Shown here: one piece after another, positions 6,214 through 14,321 of the stretch
Position numbering within the stretch: the first letter of the stretch is position 1
How the letters are laid out: the number at the start of each line of letters is the position of its first letter
Assembly (NCBI RefSeq): GCF_058153355.1
Contig: NZ_CM177019.1
Direction: 5' to 3' (one strand)
Length of the DNA: 64,000 nt
Notes under the pieces: generated by a model
Database searches by the model: none
What the model saw: the letters and a program-made list of their open reading frames with translations, nothing else
What the model was told of the DNA's origin: nothing
Made by a program: the position numbers and the translations under genes

Positions 6214-7845
6214 ATGAGACATTCATTGCCCTACCGCATATTACGCAAACGTCCGATGAAATTGAGTACCACTGTGATCTTAATGGTCAGCGCGGTACTG
6301 TTCTCGGTGCTATTGGTGGTGCATCTGATTTACTTCTCGCAAATCAGTGATATGACGCGAGACGGGCTAGCCAACAAGGCACTGGCAGTGGCGCGTACTC
6401 TCGCCGACTCGCCGGAAATCCGTCAGGGCTTGCAGAAAAAACCGCAGGAGAGCGGCATCCAGGCCATCGCGGAAGCCGTGCGCAAACGCAACGATCTGCT
6501 GTTTATTGTCGTTACCGATATGCAAAGTCTTCGCTACTCGCATCCTGAAGCCCAGCGTATTGGTCAGCCATTTAAAGGTGATGACATCCTTAAAGCGCTG
6601 AATGGCGAAGAAAATGTCGCTATCAATCGCGGTTTTCTGGCGCAGGCTTTACGCGTATTTACCCCCATCTACGATGAAAATCATAAACAAATTGGCGTGG
6701 TGGCGATCGGCCTTGAGTTAAGTCGCGTGACCCAACAGATCAATGACAGTCGCTGGAGCATCATCTGGTCGGTATTATTTGGCATGCTGGTCGGGCTGAT
6801 TGGCACCTGCATTCTGGTTAAGGTACTGAAAAAAATCCTTTTCGGCCTGGAACCCTACGAAATCTCCACGCTGTTTGAGCAACGCCAGGCCATGTTGCAG
6901 TCGATCAAAGAAGGCGTCGTTGCCGTGGACGATCGCGGCGAGGTCACGCTGATCAACGATGCCGCACAAGAATTGCTGAATTACCGTAAGTCGCAGGACG
7001 ATGAGAAACTGTCGACGCTAAGCCACTCGTGGTCACAGGTGGTAGATGTCTCGGAAGTGTTACGCGACGGTACCCCGCGGCGCGACGAAGAGATTACGAT
7101 TAAAGACCGGCTATTACTGATCAACACCGTTCCGGTGCGCAGTAATGGCGTTATCATCGGTGCCATTTCAACCTTCAGGGACAAAACTGAAGTACGTAAA
7201 CTGATGCAGCGACTCGATGGTCTGGTCAACTATGCTGACGCACTTCGTGAACGATCCCACGAATTTATGAATAAATTGCATGTGATTCTCGGATTATTGC
7301 ATCTGAAGAGTTATAAGCAGTTGGAAGATTACATTCTCAAAACAGCCAATAACTATCAGGAAGAGATTGGCTCTCTGCTGGGTAAGATCAAATCTCCGGT
7401 TATCGCTGGTTTTTTAATCAGCAAGATTAACCGCGCGACCGATTTAGGCCATACGCTGATTTTAAACAGTGAAAGCCAGCTGCCAGACAGCGGCAGTGAG
7501 GACCAGGTCGCGACGCTGATTACCACGTTGGGAAATCTGATAGAAAACGCGCTGGAAGCATTAGGGCCGGAACCCGGTGGCGAAATTAGCGTAACATTGC
7601 ACTACCGTCACGGCTGGCTGCACTGTGAAGTTAACGATGATGGACCGGGGATCGCACCCGACAAAATCGATCACATTTTTGACAAAGGTGTCTCGACAAA
7701 AGGAAGCGAGCGAGGCGTCGGTTTAGCACTTGTCAAACAACAGGTAGAAAATCTCGGCGGCAACATCGCCGTGGAATCGGAACCCGGGATTTTCACACAA
7801 TTTTTTGTCCAGATACCCTGGGACGGGGAGAGGTCGAACAGATGA
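6214..7845 (+). CDS. dcuS: C4-dicarboxylate sensor histidine kinase DcuS (543 aa)
   Basis: Two transmembrane segments flanking a periplasmic sensor domain, PAS and HATPase regions; recognised sequence. Confidence 0.93.
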   Translation: MRHSLPYRILRKRPMKLSTTVILMVSAVLFSVLLVVHLIYFSQISDMTRDGLANKALAVARTLADSPEIRQGLQKKPQESGIQAIAEAVRKRNDLLFIVVTDMQSLRYSHPEAQRIGQPFKGDDILKALNGEENVAINRGFLAQALRVFTPIYDENHKQIGVVAIGLELSRVTQQINDSRWSIIWSVLFGMLVGLIGTCILVKVLKKILFGLEPYEISTLFEQRQAMLQSIKEGVVAVDDRGEVTLINDAAQELLNYRKSQDDEKLSTLSHSWSQVVDVSEVLRDGTPRRDEEITIKDRLLLINTVPVRSNGVIIGAISTFRDKTEVRKLMQRLDGLVNYADALRERSHEFMNKLHVILGLLHLKSYKQLEDYILKTANNYQEEIGSLLGKIKSPVIAGFLISKINRATDLGHTLILNSESQLPDSGSEDQVATLITTLGNLIENALEALGPEPGGEISVTLHYRHGWLHCEVNDDGPGIAPDKIDHIFDKGVSTKGSERGVGLALVKQQVENLGGNIAVESEPGIFTQFFVQIPWDGERSNR

Positions 7846-8561
7846 TCAATGTATTAATTATCGATGACGACGCAATGGTCGCGGAGCTGAATCGCCGATA
7901 CGTGGCACAAATCCCAGGCTTTCAATGCTGTGGAACAGCCTCGACGCTGGAGAAAGCCAAAGAGATTATCTTCAATAGCGATACGCCTATCGACCTGATA
8001 TTGCTCGATATCTATATGCAAAAAGAGAACGGGCTCGATTTACTGCCTGTCCTGCATAACGCGCGTTGCAAAAGTGATGTGATTGTCATCTCCTCCGCAG
8101 CCGATGCGGCAACCATTAAAGATTCGCTGCATTACGGTGTCGTGGATTACCTGATCAAACCCTTCCAGGCTTCCCGCTTTGAAGAGGCGCTCACCGGCTG
8201 GCGGCAAAAGAAAATGGCGCTGGAAAAACATCAGTATTATGACCAGGCCGAGCTTGATCAGCTAATCCACGGCAGCAGCTCCAACGAGCAGGATCCTCGT
8301 CGCTTGCCAAAAGGCTTAACGCCGCAGACGTTACGCACGCTGTGCCAGTGGATTGACGCGCATCAGGACTATGAGTTTTCAACCGACGAGCTGGCTAACG
8401 AGGTTAACATCTCGCGTGTTTCCTGCCGTAAATACCTCATTTGGCTGGTCAACTGCCACATCTTGTTCACCAGTATCCATTATGGCGTCACGGGGCGTCC
8501 AGTTTACCGTTACCGTATTCAGGCAGAACACTACTCACTACTGAAACAATATTGCCAATAA
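7842..8561 (+). CDS. dcuR: Response regulator DcuR (239 aa)
   Basis: Receiver domain (ILLDIYM...) plus C-terminal helix-turn-helix; start overlaps the dcuS stop (ATGA). Confidence 0.93.
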   Translation: MINVLIIDDDAMVAELNRRYVAQIPGFQCCGTASTLEKAKEIIFNSDTPIDLILLDIYMQKENGLDLLPVLHNARCKSDVIVISSAADAATIKDSLHYGVVDYLIKPFQASRFEEALTGWRQKKMALEKHQYYDQAELDQLIHGSSSNEQDPRRLPKGLTPQTLRTLCQWIDAHQDYEFSTDELANEVNISRVSCRKYLIWLVNCHILFTSIHYGVTGRPVYRYRIQAEHYSLLKQYCQ

Positions 8562-9131
8562 CGGATCGCTGGTTATCTGTAAGTAATAATTATTACCGTA
8601 ATGCAAAATACCCCTGGCACAAGTTACATCGTTCATCAGTAAAACTTGTGCCAGATCAAATATAATTATCCCTCCATCATCGCTAAAAATTAATATCTCT
8701 TCAGGTGAACGGTGTTTTTAATTTCAAAACGCTAACAAAAGTTAATTAACTATTATGTCACCCACATTATGTATATTTTTACCCACAAATGGGTAGATCA
8801 GATTAATCTATAAACCTAATGATATCTGCCCTGAGAACAAAAAACAGACCGATAAATATCAATAAGATAACAGCAAACAAAACATTAACATCTGCGTAGT
8901 ACAAACTATAAACCCATCGCCAGAGAGTATTTCTCTCTGAAAAAACCGCTTATCACAGTGCATAAATTTGCCGCTGCTTTAATCAGCCAATATTCACTGT
9001 GAGGTATTTACTCAAGCCGGTAACGACCAAACGGATATTTAGTCAAGCTCTGAAAACAGTTCATACAAAACAGAACGTGACTGTGATCTATTCAGCAAAA
9101 ATTTAAATAGGATTATCGCGAGGGTTTACAC

Positions 9132-10472
9132 ATGTTATTTACTATCCAACTTATCATAATACTGATATGTCTGTTTTATGGTGCCAGAAAGGGCGGTATC
9201 GCGCTGGGTTTATTAGGCGGTATCGGCCTGGTCATTCTGGTCTTCGTCTTCCACCTTCAGCCAGGTAAACCACCGGTTGATGTCATGCTGGTTATCATTG
9301 CGGTGGTGGCGGCCTCGGCGACCTTGCAAGCTTCGGGCGGTCTTGATGTCATGCTGCAAATTGCCGAGAAGCTGCTGCGCCGCAATCCGAAATATGTCTC
9401 CATTGTCGCACCGTTTGTAACCTGCACGCTGACCATTCTTTGCGGTACGGGCCACGTGGTTTACACCATTCTGCCGATCATCTACGACGTTGCTATTAAG
9501 AACAACATCCGTCCGGAACGTCCGATGGCGGCAAGTTCTATCGGTGCACAGATGGGGATTATCGCAAGCCCAGTGTCGGTTGCGGTCGTATCTCTGGTTG
9601 CGATGCTGGGTAATGTCACCTTTGATGGTCGCCATCTTGAGTTCCTCGACCTGCTGGCAATCACCATTCCATCGACGTTAATCGGTATCCTGGCGATCGG
9701 TATCTTCAGTTGGTTCCGCGGTAAAGATCTGGATAAAGATGAAGAGTTCCAGAAATTCATCTCCGTACCGGAAAACCGTGAGTATGTTTACGGTGATACC
9801 GCGACGCTGCTGGATAAAAAACTGCCGAAAAGCAACTGGCTGGCAATGTGGATCTTCCTCGGGGCAATCGCTGTAGTTGCACTTCTTGGTGCTGATTCGG
9901 ACCTGCGTCCATCCTTCGGTGGCAAACCGCTGTCGATGGTACTGGTTATTCAGATGTTTATGCTGCTAACCGGGGCGCTGATTATTATCCTGACCAAAAC
10001 CAATCCTGCGTCTATCTCAAAAAACGAAGTCTTCCGTTCCGGTATGATCGCCATCGTGGCGGTGTACGGTATCGCATGGATGGCGGAAACCATGTTCGGT
10101 GCGCATATGTCTGAAATTCAGGGCGTACTGGGTGAAATGGTGAAAGAGTATCCGTGGGCCTATGCCATTGTTCTGCTGCTGGTTTCCAAGTTTGTAAACT
10201 CTCAGGCCGCGGCGCTAGCGGCGATTGTTCCGGTCGCGCTGGCGATCGGCGTTGACCCGGCATACATCGTGGCTTCAGCACCGGCTTGCTATGGTTATTA
10301 CATCCTGCCGACTTATCCGAGCGACCTGGCAGCGATTCAGTTTGACCGTTCCGGCACCACCCACATCGGTCGCTTCGTCATCAACCACAGCTTTATTCTG
10401 CCGGGGTTGATTGGTGTGAGCGTATCGTGCGTCTTCGGCTGGATCTTCGCTGCGATGTACGGGTTCTTATAA
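9132..10472 (+). CDS. dcuB: Anaerobic C4-dicarboxylate antiporter DcuB (446 aa)
   Basis: Polytopic membrane protein; recognised DcuB sequence; upstream of fumB. Confidence 0.93.
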
Positions 10473-10549: not shown

Positions 10550-12196
10550 ATGTCAAACAAACCCTTTATCTACCAGGCACCTTTCCCGATGGGGAAAGAC
10601 AATACCGAATACTATCTACTCACGTCCGATTACGTTAGCGTTGCCGACTTCGACGGCGAAACCATCCTGAAAGTGGAACCAGAAGCCCTGACCTTGCTGG
10701 CGCAGCAAGCCTTCCACGACGCTTCTTTCATGCTCCGCCCGGCACACCAGAAACAGGTCGCGGCTATTCTTCAAGATCCAGAAGCCAGCGAAAACGACAA
10801 GTACGTGGCGCTGCAATTCTTAAGAAACTCAGAAATCGCCGCCAAAGGCGTGCTGCCGACCTGCCAGGACACCGGCACCGCGATCATCGTCGGTAAAAAA
10901 GGTCAGCGCGTGTGGACCGGTGGCGGCGATGAAGAAGCGCTGTCGAAAGGTGTCTATAACACCTATATCGAAGATAACCTACGTTACTCACAAAACGCGC
11001 CGCTGGACATGTACAAAGAGGTCAACACCGGCACGAACCTGCCTGCGCAAATCGACCTGTACGCGGTAGATGGCGACGAATACAAATTCCTCTGCGTCGC
11101 CAAAGGCGGTGGCTCTGCCAATAAAACGTATCTCTACCAGGAAACCAAAGCTTTGCTGACTCCCGGCAAACTGAAAAACTTCCTCGTCGAGAAAATGCGT
11201 ACACTCGGTACTGCAGCCTGCCCGCCGTACCATATCGCGTTTGTGATTGGCGGTACGTCTGCGGAAACCAACCTGAAAACCGTCAAGTTAGCAAGCGCTC
11301 ACTATTACGATGAACTGCCGACCGAAGGGAACGAACATGGTCAGGCGTTCCGCGATGTCCAGCTGGAACAGGAACTGCTGGAAGAGGCCCAGAAACTCGG
11401 CCTTGGCGCGCAGTTTGGCGGTAAATACTTCGCGCACGACATCCGCGTGATCCGTCTGCCACGTCACGGCGCATCCTGCCCGGTAGGTATGGGCGTCTCC
11501 TGCTCCGCTGACCGTAACATTAAAGCGAAAATCAACCGCGAAGGTATCTGGATCGAAAAACTGGAACACAATCCAGGCCAGTACATTCCACAAGAACTGC
11601 GTCAGGCCGGTGAAGGCGAAGCGGTGAAAGTCGACCTTAACCGCCCGATGAAAGAGATCCTCGCCCAGCTTTCGCAATACCCGGTATCCACCCGCTTGTC
11701 GCTCACCGGCACTATTATCGTGGGTCGCGATATTGCACATGCCAAGCTGAAAGAGCTGATTGACGCCGGTAAAGAGCTGCCGCAGTACATCAAAGATCAC
11801 CCGATCTACTACGCGGGTCCGGCGAAAACGCCTGCCGGTTATCCATCAGGTTCACTTGGCCCAACCACCGCAGGTCGTATGGACTCCTACGTGGATCTGC
11901 TGCAATCCCACGGCGGCAGCATGATCATGCTGGCGAAAGGTAACCGCAGTCAGCAGGTTACCGACGCGTGTCATAAACACGGCGGCTTCTACCTCGGTAG
12001 TATCGGCGGCCCGGCGGCGGTACTGGCGCAGCAGAGCATCAAGCATCTGGAATGCGTCGCTTATCCGGAGCTGGGTATGGAAGCTATCTGGAAAATCGAA
12101 GTAGAAGATTTCCCGGCGTTTATCCTGGTCGATGACAAAGGCAACGACTTCTTCCAGCAAATCGTCAACAAACAGTGCGCGAACTGCACTAAGTAA
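10550..12196 (+). CDS. fumB: Class I fumarate hydratase FumB (548 aa)
   Basis: Recognised FumB sequence [31 protein letters not shown]...; Fe-S fumarase family. Confidence 0.93.
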
Positions 12197-12318: not shown

Positions 12319-12969
12319 ATGACCCGCACACTCAAGCCGTTAATTCTTAACACCGGCGCACTGGCGCTAACGTTAATCCTGATTTATACCGGCATTTCGG
12401 CCAATGACAAACTCACCTGGCTGATGGAAGTGACACCGGTGATTATTGTCGTGCCGCTACTGCTTGCCACCGCCAGACGTTACCCGTTAACGCCGCTGCT
12501 CTATACGCTCATTTTCTTTCATGCCATCATCCTGATGGTCGGCGGGCAATACACCTACGCGAAAGTCCCCGTTGGTTTTGAGGTGCAGGAATGGCTGGGG
12601 TTGAGCCGTAATCCGTATGACAAGCTGGGGCATTTTTTCCAGGGGCTGGTGCCTGCACTGGTGGCGCGAGAAATTCTCGTTCGCGGGATGTACGTGCACG
12701 GACGTAAAATGGTGGCGTTTCTGGTCTGCTGCGTGGCGCTGGCGATAAGCGCGATGTATGAATTAATCGAGTGGTGGGCAGCGCTGGCAATGGGTCAGGG
12801 AGCGGATGATTTTCTCGGCACCCAGGGCGACCAGTGGGACACACAATCCGATATGTTCTACGCGCTACTTGGTGCATTAACTACGGTGATATTCCTTGCT
12901 CGCTTTCATTGCCGCCAGCTACGGCGCTATGGCTTAATCACCAGAGCGCCGGAAGCGATTACCTCTTAA
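12319..12969 (+). CDS. yjdF: Inner membrane protein YjdF
   Basis: Hydrophobic ORF in conserved position after fumB; start codon not verified. Confidence 0.8.
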   Translation: MTRTLKPLILNTGALALTLILIYTGISANDKLTWLMEVTPVIIVVPLLLATARRYPLTPLLYTLIFFHAIILMVGGQYTYAKVPVGFEVQEWLGLSRNPYDKLGHFFQGLVPALVAREILVRGMYVHGRKMVAFLVCCVALAISAMYELIEWWAALAMGQGADDFLGTQGDQWDTQSDMFYALLGALTTVIFLARFHCRQLRRYGLITRAPEAITS

Positions 12970-14321
12970 CGGTGTAACCAGCCTGGCAGCCAGTCGCCGT
13001 GGGCGGCAATCAGGTCGTCAACAAGAGCATATATTTCGTCAATGCCCAGCACGGCGGCAGTATGCGGGTCCATCATCGCGGCGTGGTAAACACGGTCGCG
13101 ATTTTCTGTGAGAATGGCTTCCGTCAGCAGTGTCTGTACGTTGATATTGGTTTGCATCAGGGCGGCCAGATGCGAAGGTAGCGTACCGACTTTGGTCGGC
13201 TGAATGCCATTAGCATCAACCAGACAGGCCACTTCCACACAACATCCTTGTGGCAGGTTATCAATCAAACCATCGTTACGGACGTTGCCATAAATCACAC
13301 TCGGCTCGCCAGTCCAGATAGCGTTCATGATTGTGCTGGCATATTCCCGTGACGGTTTAATATCAATCCGGGAGGCGTTCTTATACTCCTCCAGCTCTTT
13401 ATGCCAGTTCGCCAGCTGCTCGACGCAGCGTTTCGGGTACTCATCCAGCGGTACTTTATAACGCTCAATCAAATCCTCACGACCTGGCTTAATAAACCAC
13501 GGTGTGTACTCAGCAAAATGTTCTGACGATTCCGTGACGAAGTAGCCCAGCTTTTTGAACATTTCGTAACGCACAATATTCTGGCAGCGAGTATTACCAT
13601 GAATATTTGGCTTCGGTGCCTGCCCTGCTTCATAAGCCGCCAGCAGTTCCGGGTAGAGATTCACGTAACTGCCGTCGGCGGTTTTGCGCTCCAGTTCCAG
13701 GTAAAACGCCATATGGTTGATACCCGCACAACGGTAACGCAGCGTAGCCGGGTCGATATTGAGGTCACGCGCCAGCTCTTCCGCCGTTCCCTGCACCGAA
13801 TGACACAGCCCTACCTGTTTGATATGCGGATAACGGGCATACATCGCCCAGGTATTCATCGCCATTGGGTTAACATAGTTGAGCATGGTGGCATCGGGGC
13901 AGACTTCCGTCATGTCCTCGCAAATTTGCCACAGGTGAGGAATGGTACGTAGCGCGCGCATAATACCGCCCGGCCCCAGCGTATCGGCAATGGTTTGTTC
14001 CAGACCGTGGCGCTTACAGACCTCGAAATCAGTCACCGTGCAAGGTTCATAACCGCCAATCTGAAATGCCACCACGACAAAATCGGCATCCTGTAAGGCT
14101 TCTTTCTGTTGGGTGTGGCAGGTGATTTTGCCGCTGGCCCCTGCTGAATCCATCAGCTTGCGCACCACAATATGCGACTCTTCCAGGCGGGTGGGATCAA
14201 TGTCCATCAGGGCAATATGCGCCGTTTTCAGCGCCTCGCGATGGAACACATCACCAAGAATATTTTTAACGAAAATCGTCGAACCAGCGCCGATAAATGT
14301 AATTTTGGGTGCAGACATCAT
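12966..14321 (-). CDS. melA: Alpha-galactosidase MelA (451 aa, NAD/Mn-dependent GH4 family)
   Basis: Recognised MelA sequence MMSAPKITFIGAGSTIFVKNILGDVF...; divergent from melR; stop codon overlaps the yjdF stop. Confidence 0.93.
   Translation of the reverse strand: MMSAPKITFIGAGSTIFVKNILGDVFHREALKTAHIALMDIDPTRLEESHIVVRKLMDSAGASGKITCHTQQKEALQDADFVVVAFQIGGYEPCTVTDFEVCKRHGLEQTIADTLGPGGIMRALRTIPHLWQICEDMTEVCPDATMLNYVNPMAMNTWAMYARYPHIKQVGLCHSVQGTAEELARDLNIDPATLRYRCAGINHMAFYLELERKTADGSYVNLYPELLAAYEAGQAPKPNIHGNTRCQNIVRYEMFKKLGYFVTESSEHFAEYTPWFIKPGREDLIERYKVPLDEYPKRCVEQLANWHKELEEYKNASRIDIKPSREYASTIMNAIWTGEPSVIYGNVRNDGLIDNLPQGCCVEVACLVDANGIQPTKVGTLPSHLAALMQTNINVQTLLTEAILTENRDRVYHAAMMDPHTAAVLGIDEIYALVDDLIAAHGDWLPGWLHR

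Follow-up and report, generated by a model that had tools for sequence, protein, structure and literature searches.

Open reading frames and the RefSeq annotation place dcuS, dcuR, dcuB and fumB on the + strand of the window (the whole 64,000-nucleotide stretch of DNA analysed), with an intergenic region of exactly 570 bp (~35% GC) between dcuR and dcuB.

6214–7845, + strand: dcuS
7842–8561, + strand: dcuR
8562–9131: dcuR–dcuB intergenic region
9132–10472, + strand: dcuB
10550–12196, + strand: fumB

The first-pass annotation had described an unusually long, AT-rich region upstream of dcuB, and both attributes hold. Of the 47 gaps between genes in the surrounding 50 kb, this one exceeds all others (the runner-up measures 401 bp), and its GC content in 200-nt windows is 0.31–0.39, compared with ~0.45–0.60 in the flanking genes. 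It is long in all genera that keep dcuR beside dcuB, including Intestinirhabdus (552–910 bp), and an alignment of four genera (Escherichia, Salmonella, Citrobacter and Trabulsiella) displays several conserved blocks common to all of them. Relative to K-12 MG1655, there are 12 differences and no indels over 601 nt (98% identity; K-12 coordinates are 4,357,876 minus the window position), and at least 80% of a 901-nt query spanning the gap (8400–9300) is present in 5407 of 5426 E. coli genomes. With dcuS and dcuR upstream, fumB downstream and near-identity to K-12, the region belongs to the characterised dcuB-fumB control region of E. coli, sharing the locus, the FNR site, the start geometry and the proximal 5' end with the K-12 region described earlier (Golby 1998, Abo-Amer 2004, Janausch 2004, Goh 2005, Myers 2013). 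The locus is already well studied and ordinary, and the new lead it offers is modest.

The DNA-level features of the upstream half of the gap, together with the transcript that starts there, are as follows.

8646–8659, no strand assigned: FNR site TTGTGCCAGATCAA of the TTGAT-N4-ATCAA type, centre 8652.5, at −132.5 from the distal start
8713–8757, no strand assigned: block C, TGTTTTTAATTTCAAAACGCTAACAAAAGTTAATTAAsTATTAT, near-invariant 45 bp at −72 to −28, presumed DcuR-P region
8772–8779, + strand: −10 element of the distal promoter, TATATT or TATTTT, placed relative to 8785; the motif TGTrTATTTTTA is conserved
8780–8795, no strand assigned: NarL 7-2-7-like site TACCCAC-AA-ATGGGTA from a heptamer scan, spanning +1, a motif match only
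8785, + strand: distal dcuB transcription start (K-12 NC_000913.3 4,349,091; FNR site centre + 132.5)
8785–9131, + strand: 5' leader of the distal dcuB transcript, 347 nt, before the ATG at 9132

The FNR site matches the consensus TTGAT-N4-ATCAA at 8 of 10 positions and is identical to the bound PWM site TTGATCTGGCACAA, its reverse complement, listed at 4347240 in U00096.2 coordinates (Myers 2013, Table S6). It lies beneath FNR ChIP-seq peaks at 4,347,216 and 4,347,259 (Myers 2013), and is thus occupied in vivo as expected of an FNR-regulated promoter. Activation of dcuB-fumB by FNR is documented in the same study, where the site is assigned to −132.5 and to category 1, directly activated (Table 1), and where an fnr mutant expresses dcuB at 0.028 and fumB at 0.055 of the wild-type level (Myers 2013). 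Across the four aligned genera the site is kept as TTG[TC]G[CT][CT]AGATCAA, and it is missing in Intestinirhabdus.

The position of this site is atypical. At −132.5 it occupies neither the class II (−41.5) nor the class I (~ −61.5) activating position, and 19 of 23 FNR-activated promoters with a known start carry their site at −41.5 ± 4, which counts against the completeness of the best explanation we can offer. The dcuB promoter resembles class II FNR promoters in the type of its site with 8/10 matches, in FNR-dependent anaerobic induction and in sigma70 dependence. In contrast to them, it has its site at −132.5 and no conserved −10 element at the class II distance, and its −35 region is taken by the presumed site of the co-activator DcuR. 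Other promoters near the FNR site were considered and rejected. A class II promoter directly downstream would lack a −10 element at the right distance; the conserved TAATAT at 8691–8696, taken as such an element, would place FNR near −50, with a spacing that varies by 31–35 nt among genera. A sigma54 promoter within the arms of the inverted repeat described below (TGGCAC-N5-TTGC) would have a wrong −12 element (TTAC or ACAT), and Salmonella (CTGACAC) and the C. freundii group (CTAACGC) no longer have its GG.

The distal start at 8785 was back-calculated from a published table, not taken from raw end data; a sigma70 ChIP peak that increases anaerobically maps to the same place, at ~8774–8784 (Myers 2013). 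The promoter has a weak −10 element and no −35 element, indicating that it depends on activators. Upstream of it, block C forms the best-conserved stretch of the four-genera alignment, with 1 of 45 positions variable in Escherichia. The DcuR footprint is said to extend from −359 to −400 relative to the proximal dcuB start, and in another account reportedly lies 27 bp upstream of a new dcuB +1; block C presumably coincides with both, and we presume it, from its conservation and placement, to be the DcuR-P binding region. FNR at −132.5 and DcuR-P presumed to bind at −72 to −28 would then together drive the start at 8785. The NarL-like site combines TACYYMT heptamers in the 7-2-7 arrangement with one mismatch and is partly conserved, reading TACCCAT-AA-AGGATTA in Citrobacter; a NarL site across the start would fit the known nitrate repression. 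The locus is reportedly activated by FNR and DcuR, repressed via NarL and subject to catabolite control. The earlier view of dcuB as a heavily regulated promoter is borne out by the ChIP-seq FNR site, which overlaps the right arm of the inverted repeat, by the expression drop in the fnr mutant, by the block that fits DcuR and by the NarL-like site. The motif scan proposed along with that view recovered the FNR site, the NarL 7-2-7-like site and a CRP-like site, and for DcuR it is the near-invariant block that fits.

With the start at 8785, ~60% of the gap is transcribed as leader. The first-pass annotation had left room for a long 5' leader, and this expectation agrees with both the spacing from the FNR site, which leaves 347 nt before the ATG, and the sigma70 peak. 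Leaders in the other genera measure 311–574 nt. The leader has a minimum free energy (MFE) of −76.6 kcal/mol (z = −4.0 relative to shuffled sequences). Conserved upstream ORFs were discarded, as the 26- and 35-aa candidates are broken by stops or frame changes within Escherichia. The following elements lie within the leader.

8913–8921, + strand: leader motif CCCAUCGCC, in which CCC(A)UCGC (8913–8920) is the predicted anti-Shine-Dalgarno (anti-SD) segment and C8921 the first hairpin base
8921–8939, + strand: covarying 7-bp hairpin CAGAGAG-UAUUU-CUCUCUG, with compensatory changes
8953–9002, + strand: second leader hairpin TCACAGTGCATA ... TATTCACTGTGA, part of the leader MFE structure, conserved within Escherichia only
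9082–9097, no strand assigned: CRP-like site TGTGATCTATTCAGCA from a motif scan
9112–9113, + strand: proximal dcuB 5' end "p1", −20/−19 from the ATG
9118–9125, + strand: 3' strand of the predicted long-range helix, GCGAGGGU, containing the SD GAGGG (9120–9124)

In the alignment, 90.7% of the cells of the 7-bp hairpin are paired, and both sides have changed in 5 of the 7 pairs; the observed value is reached in none of 500 shuffles, controls slid along the alignment give 36–65%, and RNAalifold concurs. The presence of G.U pairs among the changes assigns the conserved structure to the + strand, inside the dcuB leader. Together with the invariant CCCAUCGCC, the hairpin forms a conserved module at 8913–8939. 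A covariance model of this motif has one match in the 64-kb window, and its matches elsewhere are confined to loci where dcuR adjoins dcuB, with none at dcuB loci without dcuR.

The proximal 5' end suggests a different account of dcuB expression, in which a promoter at −20 yields a short leader, the upstream 550 bp serve only as spacer with remote activator sites, and structure in the leader RNA is incidental. This end has been mapped twice by independent methods, at −20 (Golby 1998) and at −19 (DMTSS), as tabulated in Mendoza-Vargas 2009. A CRP-like site and conserved sequence lie nearby, the former being closer to consensus in other genera (TGTGATCCATTTATCA); its centre at −22.5 from the proximal end is not a standard activating position. 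However, no good −10 element is found at the right distance and no promoter is called there. The only dcuB entry among the oxygen-responsive sigma70 peaks of Myers 2013 (Table S2), at ~8774–8784, lies ~330 bp upstream of the proximal end, and the table of that study places the start 132.5 bp from the FNR site. Furthermore, compensatory changes with G.U pairs at 8921–8939 make sense only if the + strand is transcribed there. We consider this account improbable, and the proximal end itself to reflect either weak initiation from a promoter of its own or processing of the transcript.

The distal transcript, which we favor as the source of the leader, carries its conserved module ~200 nt upstream of the ribosome-binding site (RBS). 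CCAUCGCC is invariant in 27 of 27 sequences from five genera, with the first C nearly so, and CCC(A)UCGC (8913–8920) is predicted to pair with GCGAGGG (9118–9124) with a probability of ~1.0 in both the window and K-12. Pairing between CCCAUCGC and the SD region is predicted at probabilities of 0.5–1.0 in 20 of 21 leaders from five genera, while the sequence separating anti-SD from SD in these 21 leaders is poorly conserved and 160–320 nt long. The dcuB leader thus possesses an upstream segment that is complementary to its SD and predicted to pair with it. Predicted SD accessibility is 0.00–0.02 in the native leaders and on average 0.21–0.37 when the upstream part is shuffled, with 3–10% of the shuffles as occluded at the SD as the native leaders; G-rich SDs often come out as paired in predictions for long AU-rich RNAs anyway. 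UCGyGAGGG is invariant across genera, the one variant being C9119 to U in two Escherichia species, which yields a G.U pair. As both strands of the helix are otherwise invariant, covariation cannot test it. In two Citrobacter lineages the anti-SD has changed without compensation, to GCCAUCGCC, for which pairing is not predicted, and to GCCAUCACC.

These folding predictions characterise the long dcuB leader as a predicted SD-sequestering translational riboregulator. The invariant CCCAUCGC, beside the covarying hairpin, would pair with GCGAGGG ~200 nt downstream, and we propose that translation of the long transcript would as a result stay low for as long as the helix is neither opened nor removed. 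The proximal 5' end lies just upstream of the 3' strand of the helix, and an mRNA beginning there would lack the inhibitory strand. The sequence at this end, GG|AUU, fits the RNase E motif RN|WUU.

Two systems offer a precedent for such an arrangement. In the rpoS mRNA leader, the SD is hidden by long-range pairing and opened by DsrA, RprA and ArcZ, and translation from the 5' UTR of the anaerobically induced adhE requires cleavage by RNase III. Like these, the dcuB leader is several hundred nucleotides long, has an upstream segment complementary to the RBS and comes with a shorter 5' end devoid of the inhibitory strand; like adhE, dcuB is anaerobically induced. In contrast to both, sequestration at dcuB is a prediction, and its helix is short, at 8 bp with a bulge; it does not vary, and two Citrobacter lineages have a degraded version.

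Upstream of the dcuB start, the FNR site overlaps an inverted repeat.

8614–8625, + strand: left arm CTGGCACAAGTT, 12 bp, Escherichia only
8643–8654, + strand: right arm AACTTGTGCCAG, overlapping the FNR site

The 12-bp repeat noted at first pass is real, perfect and non-random; the extent given for it, about 8615–8665, was slightly too wide, as the arms with the 17 nt separating them span 8614–8654. Perfect inverted repeats of at least 12 bp (loop 3–40) occur in 6 of 2000 dinucleotide-preserving shuffles of the region, indicating that the repeat exceeds chance. The 71-nt segment containing it occurs once in the genome, is found in 5400 of 5426 complete E. coli genomes and is neither a REP nor an IS repeat. 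A natural IS1 insertion within the repeat is found in one pig isolate. The right arm consists of the left half and the spacer of the FNR site. The left arm shows no variable position among its 12 in six Escherichia lineages, in which its flanks vary at 44–66% and the loop at 41% of positions, and it is missing or unalignable outside Escherichia, for instance in Salmonella, Citrobacter and Trabulsiella, where the FNR site is retained. Judged by this pattern, the left arm is a putative Escherichia-only addition under purifying selection. The sole change of the right arm within Escherichia, C to T in E. albertii, retains a G.U pair in the + strand RNA. Just downstream, a further 17 bp (8655–8671, including TATAAT) are likewise invariant in Escherichia. 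The literature searched, key older promoter papers aside, makes no mention of the FNR site as an arm of a 12-bp inverted repeat or of RNA structure in the 347-nt leader; the invariant, Escherichia-specific left arm and the conserved RNA module of the leader appear to be undescribed.

Because transcription of dcuB begins downstream of the repeat, the repeat enters RNA only at the 3' end of the dcuSR message, outside the dcuB leader. Its hairpin has a folding energy of −18.9 kcal/mol on the + strand and −19.3 kcal/mol on the − strand. It does not qualify as an intrinsic terminator, with a loop of 17 nt and a + strand tail, AUCAAAUAUAAU, that lacks a U-tract, and a simple scan of the gap calls neither terminator-like nor promoter-like sites on either strand. 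Stable stem-loops without a U-tract are described as marking and protecting the 3' ends of Rho-terminated E. coli mRNAs (Dar & Sorek 2018). The dcuSR hairpin resembles this class in its stability (~ −19 kcal/mol), in the missing U-tract and in its location 53–93 nt after the stop codon, and differs in its long loop (17 nt) and in a 3' arm that doubles as a transcription-factor site. The likeliest role of this hairpin, at somewhat less than even odds, would be to set or shield the 3' end of the dcuSR mRNA and to insulate it from the dcuB promoter.

Alternatively, the repeat might act as DNA. The left arm could contribute one more CACAA half-site or serve as operator for a different protein, dimeric or tetrameric, which would modulate FNR occupancy or assist FNR in acting from −132.5, through cooperative binding or looping for instance. 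The right arm is already a proven protein site, the distal FNR position demands an explanation, the arms are strictly conserved in Escherichia, and the invariant 17 bp that follow (8655–8671) suggest a larger DNA element. Against this, at N4 spacing the left arm offers no partner half-site for FNR (TACCC-CTGG-CACAA), only one FNR site is listed for dcuB (Myers 2013), and Salmonella, Citrobacter and Trabulsiella retain the FNR site without a left arm. The change in E. albertii, moreover, is the G.U-compatible transition that RNA pairing predicts. All this renders a DNA role unlikely. Even less likely is that the repeat arose by evolutionary accident and does nothing by itself, for example through a local palindromic duplication of the FNR half-site. 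Its absence outside Escherichia, where the FNR site and dcuB regulation are nonetheless conserved, would agree with an accident, as would the lack of a terminator-like tail. However, an inverted repeat of this length arises in only 0.3% of the shuffles, and no left-arm position varies across six Escherichia lineages, amid neighbouring positions that are 41–66% variable; twelve consecutive invariant sites have p ~0.002–0.02 at a background variable fraction of 0.27–0.4.

The first-pass annotation had also left room for a small RNA, and here the results point the other way. The proposed covariance-model search for known sRNAs (Rfam 15) gave best matches of 12–22 bits, compared with gathering scores of 39–110; the gap contains no promoter/terminator pair, and no ncRNA is annotated in it in K-12. 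Homology to STnc410 looked plausible when aligned but was dismissed, since 12.9 bits against a gathering score of 50 amounts to chance and the genuine STnc410 locus is found elsewhere, between STM3862 and STM3863. An independent small RNA, or a role of the repeat hairpin in terminating an antisense transcript on the − strand, would draw on the length and AT-richness of the gap and on the − strand hairpin (−19.3 kcal/mol), which is followed by the moderately U-rich GGGUAUUUUGCAUU. Spurious or antisense promoters are common in long AT-rich contexts. However, in addition to the absence of Rfam families near threshold, of promoter-like or terminator-like sites on either strand and of a K-12 ncRNA annotation in the gap, the E. 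albertii substitution would create an A.C mismatch on the − strand, and the G.U pairs of the covarying hairpin put RNA structure on the + strand. We regard such a transcript as highly improbable.

A further conserved element follows directly after the dcuR stop codon.

8572–8612, no strand assigned: block A, GTTAT-N6-GTAAyAATTATTAC..GTAATGmAAAAT, AT-rich, with the palindrome GTAATAATTATTAC at 8583–8596

Block A is conserved in sequence across Escherichia, Salmonella, Citrobacter and Trabulsiella. A Fur box is unlikely, as Fur has no effect on dcuB-fumB in Salmonella. A conserved long terminator hairpin in block A appears doubtful: RNAalifold yields −1.9 kcal/mol and no covariation, the named structure has 74.6% of cells paired compared with 71% in shuffles, and a simple scan calls no terminator there in Citrobacter.

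Overall, we interpret the gap as a composite control region of dcuB-fumB that operates on both the DNA and the RNA level, with a probability of roughly 0.8. A more ambitious joint reading is possible, though we hold it to be doubtful as a whole. Here, an undescribed module of CCCAUCGC and hairpin (8913–8939) would hide the RBS of a long FNR/DcuR-dependent transcript, and the "−20 promoter" would be an RNase E-like processing site (GG|AUU) releasing translatable mRNA. The FNR operator of Escherichia would at the same time form an arm of the RNA hairpin that ends the dcuSR message, such that one sequence would serve as a DNA site for one operon and as RNA structure for its neighbour.

In the gut, E. 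coli respires fumarate that DcuB takes up, and the same protein is the co-sensor that sets the activity of DcuS, so that its dosage matters. Adaptive IS insertions in the dcuR–dcuB gap arise repeatedly in the mouse gut, where they increase anaerobic expression of dcuB (PMC5094792). If the leader truly hides the RBS, a post-transcriptional layer of control would have escaped decades of work with transcriptional fusions, the status of the proximal "promoter" would need to be revisited, and the IS insertions might act partly via an altered leader.

The window comes from E. coli, and open reading frame calls, together with the RefSeq annotation of near-identical genomes, place four genes around the region of interest:

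6214-7845, + strand, dcuS
7842-8561, + strand, dcuR
9132-10472, + strand, dcuB
10550-12196, + strand, fumB

The dcuR-dcuB gap thus delimited (8562-9131, 570 bp) matches the first-pass annotation exactly, and its description as unusually long and AT-rich holds as well: of the 47 gaps between genes across the 50 kb around it, this is the longest, with a GC fraction of 0.31-0.39 versus ~0.45-0.60 in the flanking genes. Over 601 nt aligned with K-12 MG1655, the sequence shows 12 differences and no indels (K-12 coordinate = 4,357,876 minus window position). Further downstream, melB is absent in this strain; melA (12966-14321, - strand) and yjdF (12319-12969, + strand) overlap by 4 nt at a junction at 12966-12969, where K-12 carries melB (1422 bp) and spacers. 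Since yjdF encodes 216 aa here versus 209 aa in K-12, its C-terminus is altered by the deletion junction.

The 12-bp inverted repeat noted earlier in the gap is perfect, with a left arm CTGGCACAAGTT (8614-8625) and a right arm AACTTGTGCCAG (8643-8654) spaced by 17 nt. When the gap is shuffled with its dinucleotides preserved, only 6 of 2000 replicates yield perfect inverted repeats of at least 12 bp. The segment is single-copy and occurs in 5400 of the 5426 complete E. coli genomes searched. For dcuB-fumB, Myers et al. 2013 (PMC3688515) report FNR ChIP-seq peaks at 4,347,259 and 4,347,216 (U00096.2 coordinates), a single site both predicted and bound, TTGATCTGGCACAA at 4347240, located at -132.5 relative to the start site, and expression in an fnr mutant of 0.028 (dcuB) and 0.055 (fumB) of wild type. 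This 14-mer is the reverse complement of 8646-8659, which sets the offset between K-12 genome versions at +1977 and the ChIP peaks at ~8640 and ~8683. Hence, the right arm coincides with the left half-site plus spacer of the known FNR operator, and the proposed regulated dcuB promoter is borne out by a ChIP-bound, arm-overlapping FNR site and FNR-dependent expression.

Adding 132.5 to the FNR centre at 8652.5 yields a calculated distal start at 8785 (K-12 4,349,091). The one dcuB entry among sigma70 peaks changing with oxygen (aerobic 58.9, anaerobic 290.6, ~4.34712e6; Myers, PMC3688515) corresponds to 8774-8784. The best-conserved block of the alignment, TGTTTTTAATTTCAAAACGCTAACAAAAGTTAATTAAsTATTAT, spans 8713-8757 (-72 to -28). 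A DcuR-P footprint at -359 to -400, counted from the start known at the time, was reportedly obtained by Janausch et al. in 2004. Abo-Amer et al. in 2004 are said to have located the DcuR site 27 bp ahead of a newly assigned +1. Taking -20 relative to the ATG for the earlier start, these numbers convert to 8712-8753 and a +1 near 8785, in agreement, as a consistency check, with both the block and the distal start. A NarL 7-2-7-like motif match, TACCCAC-AA-ATGGGTA (8780-8795; TACCCAT-AA-AGGATTA in Citrobacter), spans this start. Nitrate represses dcuB, which a NarL site in this position would fit. A 21-nt tandem direct repeat (8745-8786, ATTAACTATTATGTCACCCAC / ATTATGTATATTTTTACCCAC, 71% identical, both copies ending ACCCAC) runs from the end of the DcuR block through the -10 region and over the start site.

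The proximal 5' end, mapped to -20 (Golby 1998) and to -19 by DMTSS (tabulated in PMC2760140), corresponds to 9112/9113. A CRP-like site within the leader, TGTGATCTATTCAGCA at 9082-9097 (TGTGATCCATTTATCA in other genera), lies at -22.5 relative to this end and at -42.5 relative to the first base of the ATG, a non-standard position for activation at either mapped 5' end.

The repeat lies 131 nt upstream of the distal start, so that, as RNA, only the dcuSR 3' region can carry it. The predicted hairpin is stable on both strands (-18.9 kcal/mol on +, -19.3 on -). An intrinsic terminator is ruled out by the 17-nt loop and the lack of a + strand U-tract. Dar & Sorek 2018 showed Rho-terminated E. coli mRNAs to end just past stable stem-loops lacking U-tracts, which shield these mRNAs from exonucleases. 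The repeat hairpin resembles these in being stable and U-tract-less, and by this analogy 3'-end protection of the dcuSR mRNA would be the best-fitting of the known roles. A possible alternative role at the DNA level, with the repeat acting as a second protein site or as a modulator of FNR binding, finds some support in the unusual -132.5 position for FNR and in the invariance of the 17 bp just downstream, TATAAT included.

That segment, ATCAAATATAATTATCC (8655-8671, perfect TATAAT at 8661-8666), does not vary within Escherichia, and a second -10-like element, TAATAT at 8691-8696 (TATAAT in Salmonella), is kept across genera; no -35 matches either of them, and no known start corresponds to them. 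In E. coli EP91B (L085, NZ_CP149810.1, 1748-2445), a natural IS1 insertion between dcuR and dcuB sits at ~8625/8626, at the border of left arm and loop, upstream of the FNR site. In strain S7 (match H12), the gap is broken near 8861, beside a phage gene. In the mouse gut, insertion of IS elements into this gap is a recurrent form of adaptive mutation (PMC5094792).

Scanning one genome per species, we found dcuR adjoining dcuB in Escherichia, Salmonella, Citrobacter, Trabulsiella and Intestinirhabdus, always across a long gap (552-910 bp). The FNR motif TTG[TC]G[CT][CT]AGATCAA is kept in the aligned sequences of the first four genera, with no match in Intestinirhabdus. Among the compared genera, the left arm is confined to Escherichia. 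Variable positions across six Escherichia lineages are distributed as follows:

left arm, 0 of 12
right arm, 1 of 12
loop, 7 of 17
upstream flank of the repeat, 4 of 9
downstream flank of the repeat, 27 of 41

The sole right-arm change, in E. albertii, retains a G.U pair on the + strand. Invariance of the left arm and its restriction to one genus indicate that the strand able to pair with the FNR site is a genus-specific addition on which purifying selection acts.

Directly after the dcuR stop, an AT-rich block at 8572-8612 (GTTAT-N6-GTAAyAATTATTAC-N-GTAATGmAAAAT) has a sequence shared by all four aligned genera; Fur is unlikely to be its binder. Read as a candidate hairpin, it pairs in 74.6% of cells versus 71% in shuffles, and RNAalifold gives -1.9 kcal/mol with no covariation. 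In loci L029-L082 (Klebsiella, Raoultella, Serratia, Proteus, Pectobacterium and others), DcuB orthologues are 87-95% identical. Most of these genera have an N-terminus MEF.. or MDF.. versus MLFT..; Serratia proteamaculans (L054), Edaphovirga (L053) and one metagenomic bin lack this alteration. There is no dcuR within 2.5 kb upstream, except a 54%-identical relative in Edaphovirga, and the upstream regions are unrelated, without FNR, DcuR or leader blocks.

The suggested long 5' leader is upheld: from the FNR-derived start, with the sigma70 peak at 8774-8784, it extends over 8785-9131 (347 nt). It is mostly poorly conserved, the standout being CCCAUCGCC (8913-8921, final eight bases invariant), followed by a hairpin:

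C8921 to G8939, + strand, leader hairpin stem, from covariation

Across 27 sequences from five genera, 90.7% of stem cells are paired, and 5 of 7 pairs show both-sided changes such as AU to GC. None of 500 column shuffles matched the observed pairing, sliding the partner strand by 1-3 columns lowered it to 36-65%, and RNAalifold recovered the identical stem. The frequent G.U pairs assign the hairpin to the + strand, i.e. the dcuB mRNA. A covariance model of the module (8913-8939) has one match in the 64-kb window and none in dcuB loci without adjacent dcuR, e.g. Klebsiella, Serratia and Proteus.

The whole leader folds at -76.6 kcal/mol (z = -4.0), with a predicted helix between CCC(A)UCGC (8913-8920) and GCGAGGG (9118-9124), which includes the Shine-Dalgarno (SD) sequence GAGGG. 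Pairing probability is ~1.0 in this strain and K-12, and the helix is predicted in 20 of 21 leaders (p 0.5-1.0) of 311-574 nt with divergent sequence between the strands. For the SD, the predicted accessibility in native leaders amounts to 0.00-0.02, versus a mean of 0.21-0.37 with the upstream part shuffled, 3-10% of shuffles being equally occluded. Covariation is silent on this helix because both strands are invariant; its sole change, one C to U, yields a G.U pair, and two Citrobacter lineages carry uncompensated anti-SD changes. The module is predicted to occlude the ribosome-binding site, by a long-range thermodynamic prediction of a fallible kind. The -20 5' end falls within GG|AUU, 5 nt upstream of the 3' strand of the helix. 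RNase E prefers RN|WUU, and this match makes it plausible that the end arises by processing that would free the ribosome-binding site.

Leaders of Salmonella and C. freundii-group Citrobacter (L007-L022) are ~130-170 nt longer than those of Escherichia, the extra sequence following the distal promoter and preceding the CCCAUCGCC module (alignment columns about 330-560). It includes a GTGAyyrTGATCACA palindrome and a hairpin-like GTAGCA..TGCTAC element, the latter shared with Trabulsiella and with most C. amalonaticus/C. sedlakii leaders. A second stem at 8953-9002, TCACAGTGCATA ... TATTCACTGTGA (12 nt, 92% complementary), is found in Escherichia only; it carries TCACA/TGTGA motifs, and an A to G change in E. 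albertii gives a would-be G.U pair.

A small RNA, also considered for the gap, is not supported: the Rfam search of the gap gave nothing near threshold, no promoter-like/terminator-like pair was called in it, and K-12 has no ncRNA annotated there. The weak match to STnc410 is chance, as this sRNA maps elsewhere in Salmonella. No conserved small ORF was found in the gap.

In the literature searched, of partial coverage, we found no description of the hairpin formed by repeat and FNR operator or of the leader structures. Reading the gap as the dcuB control region is in essence right, and the literature had established as much before. The present analysis adds a map of the region, given in window coordinates, and two leads that appear undescribed: an Escherichia-specific hairpin that incorporates the FNR operator, and a leader module, conserved and covarying, whose predicted effect is occlusion of the dcuB ribosome-binding site.
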